A stretch of DNA of 64,000 nt from a virus, in IMG/VR virus record IMGVR_UViG_3300045988_133395, one strand, 5' to 3'. A model generated the notes under the pieces. That model was not told the DNA's origin and did no database searches. It saw nothing but the letters and a program-made list of their open reading frames with translations. The position numbers and the translations under genes were made by a program. Shown in pieces: positions 24,313-33,881 of the stretch. Position 1 is the first letter of the stretch, and every line of letters starts with the position of its first letter.

Positions 24313-24497
24313 TTAAAAAGCTTGCGGCCGCAGATAGGGCAGTATTTAATATGTCTAATATATTCAAATCCTATTCCGCCATCCCAGTCGTTTGCCATAT
24401 ATAAAGTATCATCTGCATCTAATTCTCTACAATATCTACATTCTTCTGCTTGTTTTAAGTATTCTTCTTTGTCGTGCCAGGTTTTATCTGCGCCCAT
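24300..24497 (-). CDS. small zinc-ribbon protein (possible)
   Basis: 65-aa ORF with CRYC...CPIC; overlaps nrdD 3' end by 43 nt. Confidence 0.3.
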   Translation of the reverse strand: MGADKTWHDKEEYLKQAEECRYCRELDADDTLYMANDWDGGIGFEYIRHIKYCPICGRKLFNWEE

Positions 24498-24973
24498 TCT
24501 CTTTTTCCTCCATGCTTAACACGATGTTCAACTTCATCTTGCTTACCAAGATTAAAAGCAGTTTTATAATTTCCTGTTAAATATCCAGTAACTCTTCTAA
24601 GCTGTTGGATATGAGTGCTTCCACAGATAGGACATCTATCATTAAATTCATCTGTGTATCCGCACTCAAGACATGTGTCGTTTGGTACATTAACTGCAAA
24701 ATATGGAATGTCTTTATCCATAGCATAATTTACAATTTGCTCTAATGCTTCAAGATTATTTTTAATACCAGAATCTAATTCAACATAAGTAATACATCCC
24801 GCAGATGAATAACCAGTTAATTGAGATTCAATATCAATCTTTTCAAATGGAGACATTTCTTTCCAAACTGGAACATGAATTGAATTAGTAAAGAATTCTT
24901 TATCACTTACATTTTCAATTACTCCATATTTTGCTTTAAAGTTTTTTAAAGCTTTATAGCAAAGGTTTTCGGC
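24455..24973 (-). CDS. nrdD: anaerobic ribonucleoside-triphosphate reductase, exon 2 (C-terminal part)
   Basis: AENLCYK at start, Zn site CLECGY...CPICG, glycyl-radical motif RVTGYLTG. Confidence 0.8.
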   Translation of the reverse strand, partial: AENLCYKALKNFKAKYGVIENVSDKEFFTNSIHVPVWKEMSPFEKIDIESQLTGYSSAGCITYVELDSGIKNNLEALEQIVNYAMDKDIPYFAVNVPNDTCLECGYTDEFNDRCPICGSTHIQQLRRVTGYLTGNYKTAFNLGKQDEVEHRVKHGGKREWAQIKPGTTKKNT

Positions 24974-25941
24974 CATTCGAACCCTCGGTTTCCCGATATT
25001 TCAAAAGGGGATTAGACTATATTATCATCTTATTATTCTATTACCAAATAATAAGAGCTCTGTCTTTCGGATATAATATCCTACTCTACTCACTTCTTCA
25101 TTATAAATATTTCTTTTATAACTATGTTTTCGATAGTCGTTAGAGAACAAATCCATTGGTTTTGTATTCAGTCAAGTATCTAAACCAATATCCACAACGA
25201 GGTTTTGTTTTTACATTGTGATTACATTGATTTAATATTGTTGTTTTTGTAACGTGTAATTCTCTTGAAGCTTCTCCTACAGAGCCATACATCTTTAATA
25301 GATTGCCCTGTAAATCAAAACTACAAATATGAATTGATTGATTATCATCCCAGCTTTTATCATTTTTAGCAAGACCATCTTTATAAGCATCTTTAGTATT
25401 TTTTGAATTAGTCCCCCATTCAAGATTAGATACTTCAGGGTTTGCTTTATTATTATCTTTATGCATTACTACTGTATAATTATTTGGATTAGGCAAAAAA
25501 GCTTCTGCAACTAAAATATGCACTCTTCTTTGTCTTTGTCCTTCTGGATAGGTTATATTGGAATATAAATATCCATTATTTTTATTTATAAAATTTGCTT
25601 TGGGATAAAATAAATCATTTCCATAATCTTTATAAATATTACCTTTTGAAGAAATATAATCAGTTTCACTTCCATTAATTAATCGTATTTCTTCATTAAT
25701 TTGACTTCTTTTAATTAATTTATCTGTCATTTTTCTACGTGCCATAAAAAATTCACTCTCCTTCTATATTATATGAATTTTTATTATACACGACTGAAAA
25801 CTTGTGTCCAATGAATTTACCCTACGGGATTAACTTGCCTTATTACAGGTTTAGTCTCTCTTATCATCTTATTACGATTGCCCGTTTAACAGAGTAATTT
25901 TTTCACGCAGTCACCTGCGCGACACCCAATCCGAAAAGTTT
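24974..25941 (-). mobile_element. group I self-splicing intron in nrdD carrying HNH homing endonuclease ORF
   Basis: Exon 1 frame reads YYTP then garbage and stops; exon 2 resumes AENLCYK (conserved NrdD YxTPAExLC); exon 1 ends in U, intron ends in G; structured GC-richer flanks; approximate boundaries. Confidence 0.65.
25140..25745 (-). CDS. HNH homing endonuclease (intron-encoded)
   Basis: VHILVAEAFLPNPNNYTVVMHKDNNKANPEVSNLEWGT HNH motif; own GGAG RBS inside intron. Confidence 0.75.
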   Translation of the reverse strand: MARRKMTDKLIKRSQINEEIRLINGSETDYISSKGNIYKDYGNDLFYPKANFINKNNGYLYSNITYPEGQRQRRVHILVAEAFLPNPNNYTVVMHKDNNKANPEVSNLEWGTNSKNTKDAYKDGLAKNDKSWDDNQSIHICSFDLQGNLLKMYGSVGEASRELHVTKTTILNQCNHNVKTKPRCGYWFRYLTEYKTNGFVL

Positions 25942-27741
25942 AGGTGTGTAGTAAACTCCAAAATTAAGCTTATATTCTTCTTTAAATTCCGCACATCTAT
26001 CTTTAAATAACTGTTCAATTCTTTTAGCCAGTTTCATTCCTTCTGAAGTCGTATGGTCTGTGCCAATAAGAATTTGAAGAGTCTCAGCGAGTCCTAACTG
26101 ACCTACCGCTAAAGTTCCATGTTTTAATGCGCTTCTTATTCCTTCCTCTGGAATATACCCCTTCATTGTGCCATTCTCATACATAAAGGCTGCGGCAGAA
26201 GCATCCTGAGAACAAATCCAATCGAAGCGTTCAATCAACATATCTTTTGCCTGATGAATTTTTTCATCTAAAAGAGTCATGAAATATTCAACTGCAAAAG
26301 CTTCTTTTGCATCTTCGCCAGTTAAAGCATATTGAGACATAAAGTTCTGTTTAGCTTCCATTGCTAATGTAGGTAAAATAATTGTTACAGGACAAATATT
26401 TCCACGTCCATCTTTTAACTGACCGAAACCGTTAATATCGTACCCATTGGCAGTTCTGCATCCCATCGTAGAGAAGTAGGTACGAGGGTCGTTGATGTCA
26501 TATCCTGCGTTTCCAGACCAGTCGACATTAGCATAATTTGGGTACAGTCTTGTGGCGGTTGAACGTAATGCGAGTTTAAATAAATCGTAATTTGGGTCTC
26601 CTTCTTCACGATTGACTCCTTTCATACACTGGAAAATTCCACAAGGAAAAATAGAAGTTTTATGAAGCTTTCCAATACCTTTAATAGATACATTTAATAA
26701 AGCCTCTGTTACTAATCTTCCTTCTGGTAAAGTACATGTACCATAGTTAATAGAAGTAAAAGGTAACTGGTTTCCACTTCGAGATTGTAATGTATTAAGA
26801 TTATGATACATTCCTTCTACAGCTTGATAAGTTTCTTTTATTGTCATATCTACGGCATATTGATAAGCTGCTTCATTTCTAACAAATACATCATCATTAA
26901 TAGAAGCATCAGCTTTAATCCACGCCTCTTTTGCATTAGATAAATCAAAATCTTCATAAGTTCCAGCTAATCCAAGCATCTGACCTTTTTGACAATATTT
27001 AATACCATCTAAGAAATGCTTATAAAAACTTCTACGAACATAAGGAACCATGCTCCAATCTAAGTGAGTAGCAGATACTCCTCCAAACTGCTGTAATGAT
27101 TGTAACTGAAATAATACTGCCAAAAGCTGAAAAGCTGTATTAACAGATTGAGCAGGACGAACATCAGTTTGACGAGTGTTAAAACCATCTCTAAGTAAAT
27201 CATCTATAGGTAATGACAAACAATTATGCATTCCAACAGCATAACTATCTAAATCGTGAATATAAATTTCATTGTTTAAATGATTATCTCTTGACATTTT
27301 AGATACAATATAATCTAAAGCATATTTCTTTGTCATAACTGAGCTTGCTTCGCCCATACGTCCACCAAAAGAATGTTCATCTACATTAGCATTTTGATTT
27401 TGAACGTTGCGGGCTTCCAATTTTTCACTATAAGTTTTAACAAAAACTGCCTCATGCTCTCTCTTTGCTTCTTGTTTATATCTATAACGAATATACGCTC
27501 TTGCAACATCTCTTCTTTCAGATTGCATTAATAAATCTTCTACGCAATCTTGAATAGTTTCTACAGAAATAGTTGTCTTAGAGCGTTTAGCCATTTCTTC
27601 AATTTCAGTAGCAATATCTTCTGAAGTATCTGTCTCATAAAGGATTTTATCTACTTCAATCATTGCTCTATTTACTGCATCAATAATTTTTTCTTTATCA
27701 AATGGGACAATATCACCATTTCGTTTTTGAACTTCTAACAT
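25942..27741 (-). CDS. nrdD: anaerobic ribonucleoside-triphosphate reductase, exon 1 (N-terminal part; ORF in track reads through to 25903)
   Basis: ATP-cone-like N-terminus, class III RNR body; ORF continues 13 codons into intron. Confidence 0.8.
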
Positions 27742-27817: not shown

Positions 27818-28390
27818 TTATCCAATCCTGTTCTCCAACCGCTGTGCCGCAGCAGATACAACTTTCACATTGAAGTTCATATCTTTTCTATCTTCATTTA
27901 CTATTTCATTATAATGAAAATCTAAATCAGCAAAATCATCTTTATCAGCTTTATATCTTCTAATAATTTCATCAACATTTGGATTTTCTTCTCTATTCAA
28001 CTGCCGCAATAATCGAGTCTTATCTTTAGCAGTTACATAATATACTACAATCTCAATATTTTTATGAGCCATTAAACTATCAATTCCTTCTGGATTAAAA
28101 ACTCCAATATTAACACAATCAGAGCGCAATGAGCCAAAACCGGTTCCATAAAACCAGTCATTGAAGCAGGCAGCTTCCAGCATTTCACCTGCCAGAAGCT
28201 TTTCTGCAAATTCTTCACCAGAAATAAAATGATAATTAATTCCGTCTTTTTCTCCTTCTCTTGGAGGTCTTGTCGTAAAACTAACTATCTCATGGAGATT
28301 ATGATTAACTTTTAAAACCTCTTGCATAAGAGTGTCTTTTCCGCTACCAGCTTCTCCAATAATGGCAAGAATTTTATAAGAACCTATCAT
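27818..28390 (-). CDS. guanylate kinase-like nucleotide monophosphate kinase
   Basis: P-loop GEAGSGKDT, FTTRPPREGEKDGINYHFIS (GMK TTRxPRxGE.dG.dY.F), FYGT. Confidence 0.7.
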   Translation of the reverse strand: MIGSYKILAIIGEAGSGKDTLMQEVLKVNHNLHEIVSFTTRPPREGEKDGINYHFISGEEFAEKLLAGEMLEAACFNDWFYGTGFGSLRSDCVNIGVFNPEGIDSLMAHKNIEIVVYYVTAKDKTRLLRQLNREENPNVDEIIRRYKADKDDFADLDFHYNEIVNEDRKDMNFNVKVVSAAAQRLENRIG

Positions 28391-28749
28391 ACGCTTGCTT
28401 CTTCCTCTTTACCTGTTGACTCTCCTGGTGTAGTATCTCCACCTGGTTTATTTGCTTTATCTATCTCTTCCTGATACTTTCTCATTTCTTCCTGCATAAT
28501 ACTTTCTCTTTGGAAGAATGTAGCTAAATCAGAAACCTCATTATCACTTTCTTTTAATTTAAACAAATCTGTTAAGCTTTTGTGAAGAGCAGGAACAATC
28601 TTTGGAGCACACTCTTTACAAATATCCATGTTATGACTACACATATAGCCCATAGAATTTGCATAATTAAAATTAATGTTACCAGTGTCTAAATTCTCTG
28701 TAATTTCATGTCCACATAAATCACAAACTCTTTTTACTACTTGACTCAT
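28387..28749 (-). CDS. hypothetical zinc-finger protein
   Basis: 120-aa ORF, CDLCGHE...CKEC. Confidence 0.4.
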   Translation of the reverse strand: MSQVVKRVCDLCGHEITENLDTGNINFNYANSMGYMCSHNMDICKECAPKIVPALHKSLTDLFKLKESDNEVSDLATFFQRESIMQEEMRKYQEEIDKANKPGGDTTPGESTGKEEEASV

Positions 28750-28788: not shown

Positions 28789-31380
28789 TTAAAAAACATC
28801 TTCTCCTTGGTATCTATCACTTCTAATTTCCAAACTTCCATCTTCGTTAATTTTATCAATCTTATATAATTGATGTCCATTAGAAGAAGCATATTTCTTA
28901 GAAATGAAATCATCCCCTGACCTAATGCCCATTACTATAATCATATTTCCTCGATTGAACCAAGATTTTTCTCGAACCTTTTTAGTTCCATCCTCTTGTT
29001 TTTCAGAAATCTGTTTATCAAATAATGAGAAATATTCTTTTCTAAATTTAACATTAACTACTCCAGAAGTTGTCAATATAGTTACTGTACTTTTAGTTTT
29101 ATTTTTAGCAATACAAGTTCCACAAATTTTATTCAATTTGAATATATTAATTTGCTTTGCACCTTTTGTAAATGTCCTTTCTACAATAGGTTCTTGCGGC
29201 AGCTTATCAAAATCAACAAAACCATATCTTTGAGTATCAACATGAGATAATTCATGTTCATGGTAATAGAAACATAATGCCTGCATTTCCCAAGCTGATA
29301 AAGTTCCTTGAGCATATTTATCCCAATCATCCTTAAAGATTTTTTCATTTAAGTTCTGAAGAATTTGTTCTTTTTCTTCCGCAATCCACTCTCTGAATAC
29401 ATCCATCCATTTTTGATATACTTTGTCCCATGCTTTCATATTTAGAGAATAACCCTCTAATAAATCATCATGTTCCATTTCAATCAAAAAATTCATTGCT
29501 CTATCATCTATATGATAATTAGTTGTATCGCCTTTAATCTTACAAACAGATTTTAGATAACGATTAAATTCATAAACTCTTCTCGCCATAATCTGTTGTT
29601 CATTTTTTTCTGGAAGAAGATTATATTTAATCAAACCTCCCATGTTTTGTAATGTAATTCGTTTCTTTTTATCGCAAGTTTCCCAAATGTACCAACCCAT
29701 ACAAATCTTGCGGTCAATCATTGTATCAAATGCTCCACCTTTAATAAGTGAAATCATTGCTTGTTTATTTGGATGCACTTTTAATAAAAAGTCTTTAGGT
29801 GAAATATAAGGTCTATTTTTGATAATATCATCAATTACCGCATCACTGACATTCAATAAACCTTTCATTCCATAAAGAATCTGATTATTTTTGGCATCAG
29901 GCTTAAATCCATAATCTGAGTTATTTATATCAACAAGACTCATTTTAATTCCCGCCGATATAATTTCACCCATCGCCTTTGCGATTTTTCCATAATCAGT
30001 TGAAGCTGTTTTCTTCACAGAAATAGATTCAGATTCATCATCCTCATCAATCTCTAACTCACTATTATCTTCAAGTGAGCCGCTGTTTACAATTAAACAT
30101 GCACAATCCCAATAAATAGGATTCCAATTTGTTGCAATATATAATGTTTGAACACCAATGAAACTATAAGCCAAAGCATGAATAACACTAAATGAATAAC
30201 CCATCTGTGGACCAACTCCACATTTCCATACATACTGACCAAGCTTCTCACTTGCCGCCTGTGCCAATACTTTTTCATGCAAAGCTGGAATTTTATTCAT
30301 CTGCTTTTTACCAACAATCTTACGAGCCGCATTTGCTTCTCCAAGGCTGAAGTGACAAATCTTATCATCCATCAACATTCTCATTAACTGTTCCTGTGAA
30401 GGTGGAACTCCATAAGAACTCTTAAAGTAAGGCTCAAGAGTTTTCTGCTCTTCTTTGGTAAGACCAAATTTTGTCATTTCATCATACCATAATTGAATGT
30501 TTTGTTTAAAACGATAATATTTATCCATCGGACGTTCTTCTCCATCTTCGCCCATAAGTCTCATTAGACCATTCGCATCCGCCATTTCCAATACATTCTG
30601 AGGTTTTAATTTCTTTGCAACCTGCGCACCAACCTGAGAATCGAACTGGAAAGTATTAATAACAGATACTTTACCCAATGCATCCCAAATTTTCTGATCA
30701 TTTAAAGGTAAAACATTAGGATGAAAATATTTATCATAGACTTCCCGCAAACTTAACTCTGGCTCAATTTCATTATCCTCTTGGAGTAATTGAATAGTTT
30801 GAACCAACTTATCCTGAACCTCAGTTACAAGAAAATCATATTTTGTTAATCCCATATATTCTGCATCATGTAAGTCAAACTGAGTAGTAATCTCACCTTT
30901 TGGAGTTTTCATAAAAGCACTATGCTCAAATGGGTCATCTCCAAATAAAATTACACCAGATGCATGAGAACCTCTATGGTTTACAAGACCTTCAATAGCT
31001 ACAATAATATCCAATAAACCTGGATATTTATTTACTTCATTTACAAATGTTTTAACAGGTTTACGACCTTTTTCTGGATTTCCATAAACAACTTCTTTAA
31101 TTGTCCATAAAAATCCTCTTTCTTCTGGAATTAATGAACTCATATACTGAGCTTCATCAACGTCAATTCCTTCTGGATAATCCTCACTTCTATAACCTCT
31201 ACAAGCTGTCTGAATTGCAGATTTGGTTCCTTCTGTACCGAATGTTGCTACAAGAGTACATCCAAGATTTTTCTTTGCCCATTCCATGATATTATCATAG
31301 AACATCTTTCCACGCTCTTCTTTAATCTTACGAAGAATCTCCGGACGTTTAGACGGGCATATGTCGATATCAATATCCAT
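28789..31380 (-). CDS. dnaE: DNA polymerase III alpha (DnaE-type, C-family) exon 2: palm/fingers/thumb part
   Basis: Starts MDIDIDICP (DnaE MPDIDIDF), NHRGSHASGVILF (GxHAAGVVI motif); true exon start may lie a few codons upstream of ATG. Confidence 0.8.
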   Translation of the reverse strand: MDIDIDICPSKRPEILRKIKEERGKMFYDNIMEWAKKNLGCTLVATFGTEGTKSAIQTACRGYRSEDYPEGIDVDEAQYMSSLIPEERGFLWTIKEVVYGNPEKGRKPVKTFVNEVNKYPGLLDIIVAIEGLVNHRGSHASGVILFGDDPFEHSAFMKTPKGEITTQFDLHDAEYMGLTKYDFLVTEVQDKLVQTIQLLQEDNEIEPELSLREVYDKYFHPNVLPLNDQKIWDALGKVSVINTFQFDSQVGAQVAKKLKPQNVLEMADANGLMRLMGEDGEERPMDKYYRFKQNIQLWYDEMTKFGLTKEEQKTLEPYFKSSYGVPPSQEQLMRMLMDDKICHFSLGEANAARKIVGKKQMNKIPALHEKVLAQAASEKLGQYVWKCGVGPQMGYSFSVIHALAYSFIGVQTLYIATNWNPIYWDCACLIVNSGSLEDNSELEIDEDDESESISVKKTASTDYGKIAKAMGEIISAGIKMSLVDINNSDYGFKPDAKNNQILYGMKGLLNVSDAVIDDIIKNRPYISPKDFLLKVHPNKQAMISLIKGGAFDTMIDRKICMGWYIWETCDKKKRITLQNMGGLIKYNLLPEKNEQQIMARRVYEFNRYLKSVCKIKGDTTNYHIDDRAMNFLIEMEHDDLLEGYSLNMKAWDKVYQKWMDVFREWIAEEKEQILQNLNEKIFKDDWDKYAQGTLSAWEMQALCFYYHEHELSHVDTQRYGFVDFDKLPQEPIVERTFTKGAKQINIFKLNKICGTCIAKNKTKSTVTILTTSGVVNVKFRKEYFSLFDKQISEKQEDGTKKVREKSWFNRGNMIIVMGIRSGDDFISKKYASSNGHQLYKIDKINEDGSLEIRSDRYQGEDVF

Positions 31381-31395
31381 TATATACTTTAAAAG

Positions 31396-32550
31396 TATTG
31401 GACTATCTCTTTCACAATAATTTACTGAGAATATTTTACTTCAATTATTGCTAAAACGCGCTACGGAATAGTGCTTATTCTCTATTCCTCTTGAGAATAT
31501 AAAATATTTAATTCTCATTTAGTCTCTACACTCCAAAAATAACCTTTATATATCGTATGCTCCTTAATAGCTTTATTTAATCCTACATGTCCTTTTAATC
31601 CTAAAAAATCTAATGCGGCTGTTTTTGCATTAAAAACTCGAATTAAATTATTATTTTCATCATACATATAGATTTTTTTGCCATTAATTGCATTATTTTT
31701 ACTTTTTCCATACATGCCATTTTTTTCTCCAGAATTTAATCCTTTACTATGTTCAGACATTAGCCGTTTTGACTCTTCTGTATGATGTTTACCATACATA
31801 CCATTCTTTTTTCCACTAACTGCCTTAGACATATTTTTTTTATATTCTGTTGTTTGCATATATGAAGTGTCTCTATTTTGTCTTATTTTATTTTTTGTTT
31901 CTTCTGTTAAATGAACACCATATCGAGGATTTTTATCTCCTTTTCTCTGTTCACTTAATTTTTTAGAATAAGCGGTTTTTTGTTCTAAAGACCATCCAGC
32001 GATTGTATTACCACCATTACCGCCTTCATGAATATTATAAAAGTTTTTATCTTCCACTGCATTATAAACATTTATAAATTCTTTTTCTTTTTGAGAATTT
32101 TCTTCTTCGTTTTTAGAAATATATAATATTTCTCTTTTAAAATTCTCTTTACCATATTTTTTAACCGCTTGTTTTAATAAAAGTCCACTTCCTAAGTAAC
32201 TATCATTTAATTCTCCATGGTGTTTACCTATATATTTATGTCCATTTATTAAATTTGTTGTCATATAAATAAAATATTCCATATCATTACCACCTTTCAT
32301 ATTTTATATAATAAAGGCGATATTGACTTTGACAAACATTGACCAAGATATTTTGTTATTTTTAAAGCACGGTATTACAAAGTCCAACCATTTCTGGCCA
32401 CTCGCTCTCTTAGTCAGCTGATTCGTGTATTAATTAAACATACCTTATTTTGCTGATACCGTTAGCACTGTTTTTTATAACAGCACACCCTTTAGCAAGG
32501 TTCACGTTTTTTATTTACAACTCGGCAATATCAATATCAGACTACCGAGT
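31396..32550 (-). mobile_element. putative group I intron in dnaE carrying GIY-YIG homing endonuclease (approximate boundaries)
   Basis: PHP-domain ORF reads ...FRYLNEERI then 14 nonsense codons and stops; downstream ORF resumes exactly at conserved MDIDID; intervening region structured/GC-richer and holds free-standing HEG. Confidence 0.55.
31515..32300 (-). CDS. GIY-YIG homing endonuclease with NUMOD3-like repeats (I-TevI-like)
   Basis: YFIYMTTNLINGHKYIGKH GIY-YIG core; three repeats G(D/K/E)KN(P/G)(R/M)YG(V/K)H downstream. Confidence 0.8.
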   Translation of the reverse strand: MKGGNDMEYFIYMTTNLINGHKYIGKHHGELNDSYLGSGLLLKQAVKKYGKENFKREILYISKNEEENSQKEKEFINVYNAVEDKNFYNIHEGGNGGNTIAGWSLEQKTAYSKKLSEQRKGDKNPRYGVHLTEETKNKIRQNRDTSYMQTTEYKKNMSKAVSGKKNGMYGKHHTEESKRLMSEHSKGLNSGEKNGMYGKSKNNAINGKKIYMYDENNNLIRVFNAKTAALDFLGLKGHVGLNKAIKEHTIYKGYFWSVETK

Positions 32551-33881
32551 TCGATTCTCTCTTCGTTGAGGTAACGGAAGAAAGGTAAATCCCATTCGAT
32601 TGGGTCCAACTGAGTAATTCCCATAAGGTAATGATTAAGTGCGGCACAACTGGAACCACGACCAGCACCTACCATTGAACCGCAATCCCAAATCATATCA
32701 ATGTAATGTTGAAGTGTATTTGGATAACGGAACATATTTGTTTCAAGTTTTTCACTAATGATACTTTTAACTCGTGCTTCTTCCTCAAGCTCATCAAGAT
32801 AACGTCTATCATTAATTTTTTCAAGTTTTTCAAGCTGATTTAAACACTCATTTACCCAATAACGATTCTGAATATCATCATCCATTAACATTGCAGATAA
32901 ATGTGGATATTGTTTAAATCCTCTTACTTTTGGATAATCTTTAACTTCTACAGATGGAATATCCTGCTTATGAAAAAGACTATAATATTCAATTTTATTT
33001 TGTAAATCTAAAGTGTTTTCAAAAATTACATCTACATATCCATCTGGGAAACATGGAGATAATAACTCTTCTACTTCATCGCTATCCATAAGTCTGGCAA
33101 ATTCATAAAAGTCATCAACTTCACGCTCTCCACCTTTTGAATTAAGATATGCTTTATGAACCATTCTATCTTCTTTTGTTAAATAATGAGAGTCAGTTCC
33201 AACAACCATTTTAACATTATATGCAGTTGCAATTTTAAACAACTGAGAATTTACAGTCATTTGGTCTTCCTTATTAGATGGAGCACATTCAATATAAAAA
33301 TCATCTCCAAATAAATCCAGAACAAAATCCATAAAATCTTGAATCTTTTTCTGAAATTCCATTGCCATCTTTTGGTCATTTACCTTTAACGCTTCTGCAT
33401 ATAATAAAGACCATGAAGATAATTCTCCACCAATACATGCACTTGTTGCAATTAAATGACCTTTATAATGTTTTACAATTTCAGTTAATTCATCTTTTAA
33501 AGTCGGAACTCTTTCCATACCTCTATCCATATATGAATAATACCAAGCTGTAGAACTTAACTCTCTTAACGCTTTATGACCGATTGCATCTTTAGCAATC
33601 AAAATAAAGTGATAATATTTCTGACCATGATTTCTTGTATCAGTTAAATAAATCTCATTTCCTAACCCAATCACAAAATCAGGATTTGTTTCTCTTAACT
33701 CCGTTGCAATTTTATTTATTTCAACGTGCGCACAAAGGGCTTCATGGTCAGTTATACAGATACCACTAAGTCCTAATTCGATTGCTTTATTGATTAAATC
33801 TTTTGGGTGATTGGTTGAATCCAAAAGACGTAAGTTTGAATACTCTGTATGGTTATGACAATTAAACCACTTTTTGCTCAT
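32511..33881 (-). CDS. dnaE: DNA polymerase III alpha exon 1: PHP domain (last ~14 codons are intron read-through)
   Basis: FNCHNHTEYSNLRLLDS (PHP HxH...D), ITDH, conserved YLNEER before junction. Confidence 0.8.
   Translation of the reverse strand: MSKKWFNCHNHTEYSNLRLLDSTNHPKDLINKAIELGLSGICITDHEALCAHVEINKIATELRETNPDFVIGLGNEIYLTDTRNHGQKYYHFILIAKDAIGHKALRELSSTAWYYSYMDRGMERVPTLKDELTEIVKHYKGHLIATSACIGGELSSWSLLYAEALKVNDQKMAMEFQKKIQDFMDFVLDLFGDDFYIECAPSNKEDQMTVNSQLFKIATAYNVKMVVGTDSHYLTKEDRMVHKAYLNSKGGEREVDDFYEFARLMDSDEVEELLSPCFPDGYVDVIFENTLDLQNKIEYYSLFHKQDIPSVEVKDYPKVRGFKQYPHLSAMLMDDDIQNRYWVNECLNQLEKLEKINDRRYLDELEEEARVKSIISEKLETNMFRYPNTLQHYIDMIWDCGSMVGAGRGSSCAALNHYLMGITQLDPIEWDLPFFRYLNEERIELGSLILILPSCK

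Follow-up and report, generated by a model that had tools for sequence, protein, structure and literature searches.

Phage introns related to the dnaE insert

Group I introns carrying GIY-YIG or HNH endonucleases are textbook elements of phage genomes, where DNA polymerase, ribonucleotide reductase (RNR) and terminase genes are their usual targets (PMC3984707). The subject of this work is an insert in dnaE, the gene for a YorL-type, C-family DNA polymerase, of the phage represented by IMG/VR record IMGVR_UViG_3300045988_133395. The stretch of DNA analysed, called the window throughout, is 64,000 nucleotides (nt) long; all coordinates refer to it, and all genes described at the dnaE locus lie on its minus strand. 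Comparison with related sequences indicates that the insert (32543..31378; 1,166 nt, 28% G+C) is very probably a mobile group I intron, situated in phase 0 between codons 446 and 447, as an original prediction made from the window itself had proposed in outline.

The closest described systems occupy the same position of dnaE. In Enterococcus phages EF1 and EF5 (MF001358 and MF001361) the insertion point is the same (…PEL(P)|D(V/I)DID), the core is homologous (GUGAACCUUGCUAAAGGGUGU, GCUAACGGUA, AUACCGUGC, a GAGAUAAGCAC loop, AAGAUAUAGUC and a terminal G) and the layout of helix P3 and hairpins H1 and H2 is shared. They differ in that the endonuclease is of the HNH and not of the GIY-YIG type, its open reading frame (ORF) being annotated as 'HNH homing endonuclease # Phage intron', the P5 sequence is other but paired, the P9 hairpin is longer and the host DnaE is ~42% identical. 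In Bacillus phage G (NC_023719), a DnaE-like protein is split at the same site (…LNPTRGKL(P)|DIDIDFC) into gp329, which is annotated 'DNA polymerase III; DnaE-like' and ends …LNPTRGKL, and gp331, which starts DIDIDFC. Between them, gp330 is a GIY-YIG protein with 52% identity to the window endonuclease, of which it is the closest annotated relative, and its flanks carry the same RNA core elements. In contrast to the window phage, phage G is a jumbo Bacillus phage, with exons ~28-43% identical in aligned segments, and its locus is annotated as three genes with no intron. As phage G and EF1/EF5 share the intron family and the site, public phage genomes already contain both the family and the target it occupies.

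Among more distant systems, the td intron of T4 with its endonuclease I-TevI (subgroup IA2) also loops its ORF out of P6 and carries P7.1 and P7.2 between P7 and the 3' strand of P3. The GIY-YIG domain of I-TevI is the best structural match of the window endonuclease, whose NUMOD3-type linker weakly matches the I-TevI DNA-binding domain, and the J5/4-P4'-P6 segment of the window (AAUACCGUGCU) resembles that of td (AAUCCCGUGCU). The td intron differs in its host gene, which encodes thymidylate synthase, in a normal P2 before P3 and in its P9.1/P9.2 extensions, whereas the window insert has two hairpins 3' of the P3 5' strand and a near-absent P9; the identity between the catalytic domains is 22-25%. 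The bnrdE and bnrdF introns of SPβ and the DNA polymerase introns of SPO1, SP82 and Bastille (with I-HmuI and I-BasI) are likewise group I introns with homing endonucleases in genes of replication and nucleotide metabolism, and SPβ belongs to the same phage lineage as the window (YorF, YorH and YorL homologues). However, these introns interrupt other host genes (a class Ib RNR and a family A polymerase), the yorL gene of SPβ is itself uninterrupted, and the bnrdE intron is found by the Rfam model RF00028, unlike the window family. A literature search, of incomplete coverage and hence no proof of absence, found no paper on a group I intron in a phage dnaE.

The dnaE exons and the boundaries of the insert

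Three ORFs cover the locus. The first (33881..32511; 456 amino acids, aa) carries a PHP domain and has the C-terminal end …FRYLNEERIELGSLILILPSCK*; the third (31380..28789; 863 aa) begins MDIDIDIC and includes GSHASGVILF, an instance of the predicted GxHA(S/A)GV(I/V) motif; and the second (32300..31515), which encodes the GIY-YIG protein, lies between these two pieces of dnaE. In Pfam, the first ORF matches PHP (1.4e-25) and positions 15-100 of the DNA_pol3_alpha profile, and the third matches positions 103-259 of the same profile together with DNA_pol3_finger and HHH_6. The two ORFs thus divide between them a single catalytic domain, which is cut at profile position ~100-103.

Uninterrupted alleles define the cut precisely. 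A search of 5.8 billion proteins retrieved two DnaE proteins (P0001 and P0002) of exactly 1,308 aa that are 99% identical, and every one inspected of the more distant uninterrupted DnaE proteins (63-86% identity) reads ER(I/V)ELGDIDIDIC across the junction. P0002 is encoded by an SPβ-like contig of 121 kilobases (L001) that is colinear with the window at ~95% DNA identity, with two gaps only: one is exactly the dnaE insert and the other a ~984-nt insert in nrdD. The intron-less site of this contig reads …GAGCGTATAGAGCTTGGTGATATTGATATTGAT…. Joining 32544 to 31377 (CTCGGT|GATATT) gives a 1,308-aa DnaE (…EERIELG|DIDIDIC…), with a predicted ligated-exon junction of GAACUCGGU|GAUAUUGAU, also written GAGAGAATCGAACTCGGT|GATATTGATATCGAC; exon ligation restores an intact, conserved reading frame, as expected of a group I intron.

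With its end set by the 1,308-aa alleles and by DNA alignment with L001, exon 1 spans 33881..32544 (codons 1-446; PHP and the first part of DNA_pol3_alpha; end …EERIELG). Exon 2 spans 31377..28789 (codons 447-1308 and the stop codon) and contains the finger and helix-hairpin-helix domains. It starts with DIDIDIC, which holds the catalytic aspartates of the polymerase, and the insertion point lies directly before this DIDID active-site motif. Read-through from exon 1 into the insert lasts 10 codons and ends at an in-frame UAA (32511..32513), one base 5' of P3.

These boundaries modify the original prediction, which had named alignment with uninterrupted DnaE as the way to locate the junction. 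A PHP ORF with a read-through and a second ORF resuming at the DIDID block were described correctly, but the first exon had been ended at …EERI, followed by 14 codons, and the 'M' of MDIDIDIC had been counted as exon. The junction in the uninterrupted alleles and the alignment with L001 show that exon 1 is three codons longer, ending …ERIELG at 32544 before the 10 codons and the stop, and that the 'M' belongs to the insert, of which it is the last three bases, AUG. The ends of the insert were placed after the U of the P1 U·G pair and after the terminal G. On the minus strand, exon 1 ends …GAA CTC GGT, and 17 bases further GCCGAG can pair with CUCGGU, which puts a U·G wobble at the exon 1-intron junction; the insert ends …UAUAAUG and exon 2 follows with GAU AUU GAU AUC.

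Copies at the same codon

A search with the endonuclease protein led to two further IMG/VR loci with the same arrangement, one 98% identical to the window copy (L002) and the other (L003) with an endonuclease 68% and a DnaE 64% identical to those of the window. A conserved 17-mer from the non-coding part of the insert occurs in 12 viral contigs, all of which have their inserts at the same dnaE codon; it also led to one Clostridia metagenome-assembled genome (L024) and to a related core in a Bacteroidaceae contig, and a gapped-pattern search added further metagenome copies. The usable set comprises 11 distinct sequences, namely the window and ten further copies from IMG/VR, metagenomes and the Clostridia genome, with gut and rumen viromes as their sources.

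The endonuclease ORF is intact in four of the 11 aligned copies (window, L039, L009 and L018), as well as in Bacillus phage G; it is frameshifted or truncated in five of the 11 (L003, L007, L013, L024 and L031), mostly deleted in L008 and gone in L015 and L017. The natural ORF-less copy L015:1469-1805 measures 337 nt. Whether the endonuclease is intact, decayed or deleted, the RNA core is kept throughout. Such a course is to be expected for a homing endonuclease gene housed in what would be an intron that must keep splicing. Furthermore, in six of the 11 copies the interval from the last in-frame stop to exon 2 contains no ATG, GTG or TTG, and therefore the second half of the polymerase could be made there only via splicing.

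Covariation and the predicted RNA fold

A fold was derived from the homologues, and its order of paired (P) and joining (J) segments fits all 11 copies. From 5' to 3', it consists of P1, an A-rich linker, the P3 5' strand, H1, H2, J3/4 (UAA) and P4-P5-P5a-H5, followed by P6 with the ORF in its loop, J6/7 and the P7 5' strand, P7.1, P7.2, the P3 3' strand, P8, J8/7 and the P7 3' strand, a tail and the terminal G, with P10 in addition. Covariation was assessed on an alignment (A2) of the 11 sequences with ORFs trimmed, using an 87-pair structure; the controls were partners slid by ±1-3 columns and 500 shuffles, the latter on five measures. Standard pairs fill 97.2% of the pair cells, compared with 37-45% in the slid controls, and 39 pairs are changed on both sides, compared with 9-12. 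None of the 500 shuffles reaches the observed value on any of the five measures. The compensatory pairs are spread over P1 (3), P10 (1), P3 (3), H1 (3), H2 (5), P5a (3), P6 (8), P7.1 (4), P7.2 (4) and P8 (5). Given the alignment only, RNAalifold recovers P1, P3, H2, P4, P5, P5a, the outer stem of H5, P7.2 and P8, along with H1 in a register shifted by one and the inner part of P6; the program cannot draw the P7 pseudoknot.

The most direct link between insert and exon is P1, whose variants (exon/guide) are CUC GGU/GCCGAG, CUA GGU/GCCUAG, CUG GGU/GCCCAG and CUG CCU/GGGCAG. Where the Leu and Gly/Pro codons of the exon carry silent changes, the guide changes with them (CUC/GAG, CUA/UAG, CUG/CAG and GCC/GGC), a match that is understandable only if exon and intron pair in the RNA. 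A P1 with U·G, a terminal G with P10 and a core with the P3/P7 pseudoknot and P4-P6 are the features by which group I introns are recognised. Precise absence of the insert from relatives, together with a co-varying fold that includes P1 and P10 over 11 copies, bears out the proposal of a group I intron, and on this basis we infer that the window intron is spliced.

At the 5' end of the window copy, the P1 exon strand CUCGGU (32544..32549), with the 5' splice site after its U, pairs with the internal guide GCCGAG (32521..32526), and the U·G pair is found in 11/11 copies. In P10, the guide GAUAUU (32527..32532) is matched to the six bases that open exon 2, with 6/6 pairs in 11/11; one position is changed on both sides, A-U becoming G-C in L018, and is G·U in L003. 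P3 is formed by AAAACGUG (32503..32510) and CGCGUUUU (31453..31460), with both-side changes at three positions. Between the P3 5' strand and J3/4 stand the hairpins H1 (CCUU-GCUA-AAGG) and H2 (GUGCUGUU…AACAGUGC), at 32465..32500, a position atypical for group I; three of the four pairs of H1 and five of the eight of H2 show compensatory changes. P4 (ACGGUAU/AUACCGU) encloses P5 (CAGC/GCUG) and the hairpins P5a and H5 (32369..32462). P4 and P5 are invariant among the 11, P5a and the outer stem of H5 co-vary, and P5 co-varies farther out, with AAAGUUG/CAGCUUU in Enterococcus phage EF1 and CAGUUG/CAACUG in Bacillus phage G.

P6 closes the ORF-bearing loop by pairing GCUUUAAAAAUA (32357..32368) with UAUUUUUGGAGU (31530..31541), eight of its pairs being changed on both sides; its 3' strand overlaps the endonuclease codons …YFWS, and in the ORF-less L015 it is a plain hairpin. 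J6/7 and the P7 5' strand (GUAGAGACUA, the 'R' element; 31520..31529) overlap the codons VETK and are invariant in all copies. R pairs with UAGUCC (31405..31400), leaving an A bulged beside a G-C pair as in the guanosine site of group I introns, and matches the RF00028 consensus …AGACUA. P7.1 (GAGAAU…AUUCUC), which is optional in relatives, and P7.2 (GGAAUAG-AGAAUAAGCA-CUAUUCC) lie at 31465..31516 with four both-side pairs each, and the P8 hairpin (31414..31451) has five. J8/7 with the P7 3' strand (GAAAGAGAUAGUCC, the 'S' element; 31400..31413) is invariant core and matches the RF00028 consensus AAGAUAUAGUC. The 3' tail (31378..31399) holds a small P9-like hairpin, AUACUU-UUA-AAGUAU, found only in the window and, with a different sequence, in L039, and ends at the terminal G (31378), which is present in 11/11 copies and in phage G and EF1. 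In relatives the tail measures 7-25 nt, and in some of them P7 and the terminal G are just 7-8 nt apart. The J5/4-P4' segment (UAAUACCGUGC) resembles the RF00028 consensus, as R and S do, from J3/4 onwards to the 3' end the elements follow one another in the canonical subgroup IA order, and all core helices of the window copy pair perfectly.

Two other assignments were dropped. In a first fold, the P7 5' strand was assigned to CAGCUGACUAAGAG (32420..32407) and P3 to ACGGUAU/AUACCGU, which put the ORF in P8; the ORF-less copy and the homologues show a better R element, GUAGAGACUAA, 3' of the ORF and followed by P7.1/P7.2, and the co-varying P3 is located elsewhere. The second took H1/H2 as the true P4-P5/P6, but J5/4-P4'-P6 and J3/4-P4 fit the consensus only in the assignment given above. 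As a separate observation, the P7.2 loop AGA(A)UAAGCA (31474..31482) is nearly invariant across all copies, EF1 and phage G included. The AAGCA of this loop could pair with a complementary UGCUU where P4' meets P6, either as a tertiary contact or as an alternative helix; the GUGCUU strand that is the possible partner is already occupied by P4' and P6.

A probable intron outside the Rfam models

Several points weigh against the group I assignment. The Rfam group I and II models, which the original prediction had named as a check, match neither the intron, nor its halves, nor an ORF-less copy: with gathering thresholds, the complete window gave no family, the intron and its 5' and 3' non-coding halves gave no group I or II model at E≤10, and the ORF-less homologues gave nothing at E≤1 or at the gathering threshold. 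The low-score matches are chance-level small nucleolar RNAs, small RNAs and internal ribosome entry sites only. The canonical 5' layout is absent, with no P2 before P3 and with H1/H2 between the P3 5' strand and J3/4, and P9 is minimal or missing in the family. P4, P5 and P7 do not vary among the 11 sequences and hence contribute no covariation evidence there. The terminal AUG of the window copy formally leaves room for independent translation of exon 2, and the support for splicing consists of sequence comparison.

The Rfam result has a specific cause. With the same tool, the SPβ bnrdE intron scores 92.4 bits against RF00028, which shows that the failure reflects the unusual layout of this family and not a general failure of the tool. 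RF00028 finds no match because the model expects P3 immediately before J3/4 and P4, whereas here H1 and H2 intervene. Further departures from the model are the extra P5 branches, the inserted P7.1 and P7.2 and a P9 that is tiny or missing. The insert is filed as a group I intron because the defining pairings are present, despite the failed model match. A more ambitious reading, offered tentatively and with more doubt than conviction, is that the dnaE-446 introns form a structurally distinct, unmodelled branch of subgroup IA, with P2-type hairpins displaced to the P3-J3/4 interval, a nearly P9-less tail and interchangeable GIY-YIG or HNH cargo at a single active-site target, abundant in SPβ-like phages of gut and rumen and invisible to Rfam.

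Alternative explanations

The main alternative takes the genes in pieces at face value: a free-standing endonuclease cassette would have split dnaE, and the halves would be translated separately into a two-subunit polymerase without splicing. Split genes of this kind have precedents in nrdA of Aeromonas phage Aeh1, split by mobE, and in the split gp43 of some T4-like phages. At this locus, translation of exon 1 would meet a stop after 10 codons of insert, the window has an ATG directly before DIDIDIC, GenBank lists separate coding sequences in Bacillus phage G and Enterococcus phage EF1, and Rfam detects no intron. Nevertheless, no Shine-Dalgarno sequence precedes the ATG at 31380, and the second half lacks a start codon altogether in the six relatives mentioned above. 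On either side of the endonuclease gene, the sequence belongs to a conserved, co-varying RNA fold whose guide tracks silent changes in both exons. The RNA core also persists in the 337-nt ORF-less copy, although nothing in a protein-only arrangement would favour its conservation. This explanation is accordingly held to be very improbable. Equally improbable is a decayed, non-splicing relic, with dnaE as a pseudogene or the contig as a defective phage. The atypical architecture, the lack of an Rfam match and the decay of the endonuclease in many relatives would agree with such a relic, but both exons are intact, with 99% protein identity to uninterrupted alleles, the core helices of the window copy are perfectly paired and its endonuclease ORF is intact, and independent samples have repeatedly yielded near-identical contigs with the intron (L002, L035, L040 and L041).

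Replicative polymerases, DnaE among them, are classic intein hosts (PMC4760082), and an intein or a group II intron would be the remaining candidates. In-frame stops occur at both ends of the insert, no Hint/intein or reverse-transcriptase domain is found in the three ORFs, no group II model matches, and the boundaries and pairings are of the group I type. The sequence effectively refutes both options, which are the least probable of those considered; the absence of an intein had been part of the original prediction.

Under the group I intron reading, an external guanosine bound in P7 would attack after the U of CUCGGU once the gene is transcribed, the freed 3'-OH of exon 1 would attack after the terminal G, and P10 would align exon 2 to produce the mRNA for the 1,308-aa polymerase. 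The window dnaE would then be one gene of 1,308 codons and not two polymerase fragments with a stray nuclease, and the same one-gene annotation would apply to Bacillus phage G and Enterococcus phages EF1 and EF5. A whole family of phage group I introns would also have been missed by the standard covariance model. Since the family escapes the model and metagenomes contain >1,300 relatives of its endonuclease, introns probably go under-recognised behind split 'DNA polymerase III alpha' calls in gut and rumen viromes. The understanding of how such elements work is unchanged: this is a well supported and fairly ordinary selfish element, only mildly unusual in an architecture that curated models miss.

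The endonuclease gene and its predicted homing

The homing endonuclease gene in the P6 loop (31515..32282; 255 aa) encodes a GIY-YIG domain, NUMOD3 repeats and a C-terminal domain. Its likely start is the ATG at 32282, located 3' of the Shine-Dalgarno sequence AAAGGTGG, and the upstream ATG at 32300 is less likely. Pfam reports NUMOD3 with 62.3 bits, in two stretches above threshold, and SegE_GIY-YIG with 25.4 bits (cut-off 25), while GIY-YIG PF01541, at 19.2 bits, stays below its cut-off of 22.6; PHROG assigns a homing endonuclease (1e-40). An AlphaFold model built from 24 homologues has a mean predicted local distance difference test (pLDDT) score of 77, with ~86-93 over residues 1-80. In a Foldseek search with it against the PDB, the top three matches are the catalytic domain of I-TevI (1MK0 and 1LN0), with a probability of 0.99-1.00, a target TM-score of 0.63-0.66 and the 22-25% identity given above. 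Against the I-TevI DNA-binding domain (1I3J), the sequence profile gives a marginal match over the NUMOD3 region (E=0.035). I-TevI is reached only with a profile, as phmmer against the PDB returned a chance match only, and the exact endonuclease sequence is not on record. The proposed I-TevI-like GIY-YIG/NUMOD3 endonuclease is thus recognisable from its families, and the model supports an N-terminal GIY-YIG catalytic domain with a NUMOD3-type linker as in I-TevI.

The last nine codons of the gene (…YFWSVETK*) overlap the P6 3' strand, J6/7 and the P7 5' strand, and therefore translation and ribozyme folding should be mutually exclusive in any one RNA molecule. Intron ORFs that extend into core sequences are tightly controlled (PMC3984707). 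On the 5' side of the gene lies the motif GGUCAA…GUCAA…GUCAAUAU (DNA: GGTCAA…GTCAA…GTCAATAT; 32308..32344). Its triple GTCAA (GGTCAATGTTTGTCAAAGTCAATAT; 32320..32344) occurs nowhere else in the window, and the copies with a GIY-YIG gene have conserved it. A promoter-like TTGTCA-16-TATTAT overlaps it with a 10/12 match, of a kind not enriched in the region. The GTCAA region may serve as a promoter inside the intron or as a site to which a protein binds. It was also considered as an I-TevI-style operator, an idea that was dropped as only a 6-mer is shared with the homing site, at chance level.

The gene in the P6 loop, read from its own Shine-Dalgarno sequence and possibly its own promoter, would provide the means of spread: when phages with and without the intron infect one cell, its product would cleave the intron-less dnaE near the insertion site, and repair from the intron-bearing copy would transfer the intron together with adjacent exon sequence. 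Between the window and L001, which has no intron, 20 synonymous differences fall within ±100 nt of the insertion point, whereas ~8.6 would be expected from the gene-wide rate; the intron-bearing alleles share GAACUCGGU, where L001 has GAGCUUGGU. This clustering is consistent with co-conversion, with a constraint from P1 or with both. Presence or absence at one site, the series of decaying ORFs and the clustered exon differences are indirect signs that the enzyme would home by cleavage of the intron-less allele.

Other insertion sites and the neighbourhood

Close phages offer a natural series with no intron, with the codon-446 intron or with a GIY-YIG insert at codon ~845. The last state is seen in L045:4001-9155 and L046:2508-7662, whose DnaE N-terminus is 100% identical to that of the window: no insert is present at codon 446, and a 296-aa GIY-YIG ORF follows codon ~845, between an 845-aa piece ending …GYSFSV(V) and a 384-aa C-terminal piece. 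The dnaE gene thus has another insertion site at codon ~845, whose occupancy varies between near-identical phages. With its intact, decayed and deleted endonucleases, this series is a compact system for studying how introns home, exchange endonucleases and persist at the active site of a polymerase.

A second group I-like 3' end (UAAGAUAUAGUCUGCGCC…GGAUAACGUG|) occurs in L008:~890-925 and in L016 (minus strand, upstream of 8250 in reverse-complement coordinates). It lies ~29 nt upstream of the codon-446 intron and therefore points to two introns with an exon of ~29 nt between them in this relative. In the Bacteroidaceae contig (CAVKXW010000001; L023:~1300-2350), the related core GCUAACGGUAUCAGCUAAAUAAG…AAUCAGCUGACUAAGAGAGC…GAUACCGUG…AAGAUAUAGUC has a different 5' context and apparently sits off the dnaE-446 site, so that the family may also occupy other genes.

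The original prediction had counted two intron-interrupted core genes, and nrdD (27741..24455) is indeed also split, by a group I-like insert of ~984 nt (25957..24974). The first nrdD exon ends …YYTP (ACACCU|), followed by the guide GGGUGU. The insert holds an HNH ORF (25745..25140; PHROG HNH endonuclease, 1e-35), an S element (GAUAAUAUAGUCUAAUC) near 25022 and a terminal G in …UCGAAUG|, and the second exon starts GCCGAAAAC (AENLCYKAL). Rfam does not report this insert either, and L001 encodes an uninterrupted NrdD of 772 aa.

Megablast of the locus against GenBank phages gave no match, and therefore the window phage, known from human gut and rumen samples, appears to be uncultured. The neighbours on L001 (YorF, YorH, DnaB, RecJ and NrdD) are typical of SPβ-like phages. 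Around dnaE in the window, the order is a RecJ-like DHH protein, a PIF1/RecD-like helicase, dnaE, guanylate kinase, nrdD, an nrdG-like radical S-adenosylmethionine protein, dUTPase and RuvC, and this gene order, including 28387..28749 and 27818..28390 on the minus strand and the L001 neighbours, matches an SPβ-like replication module.

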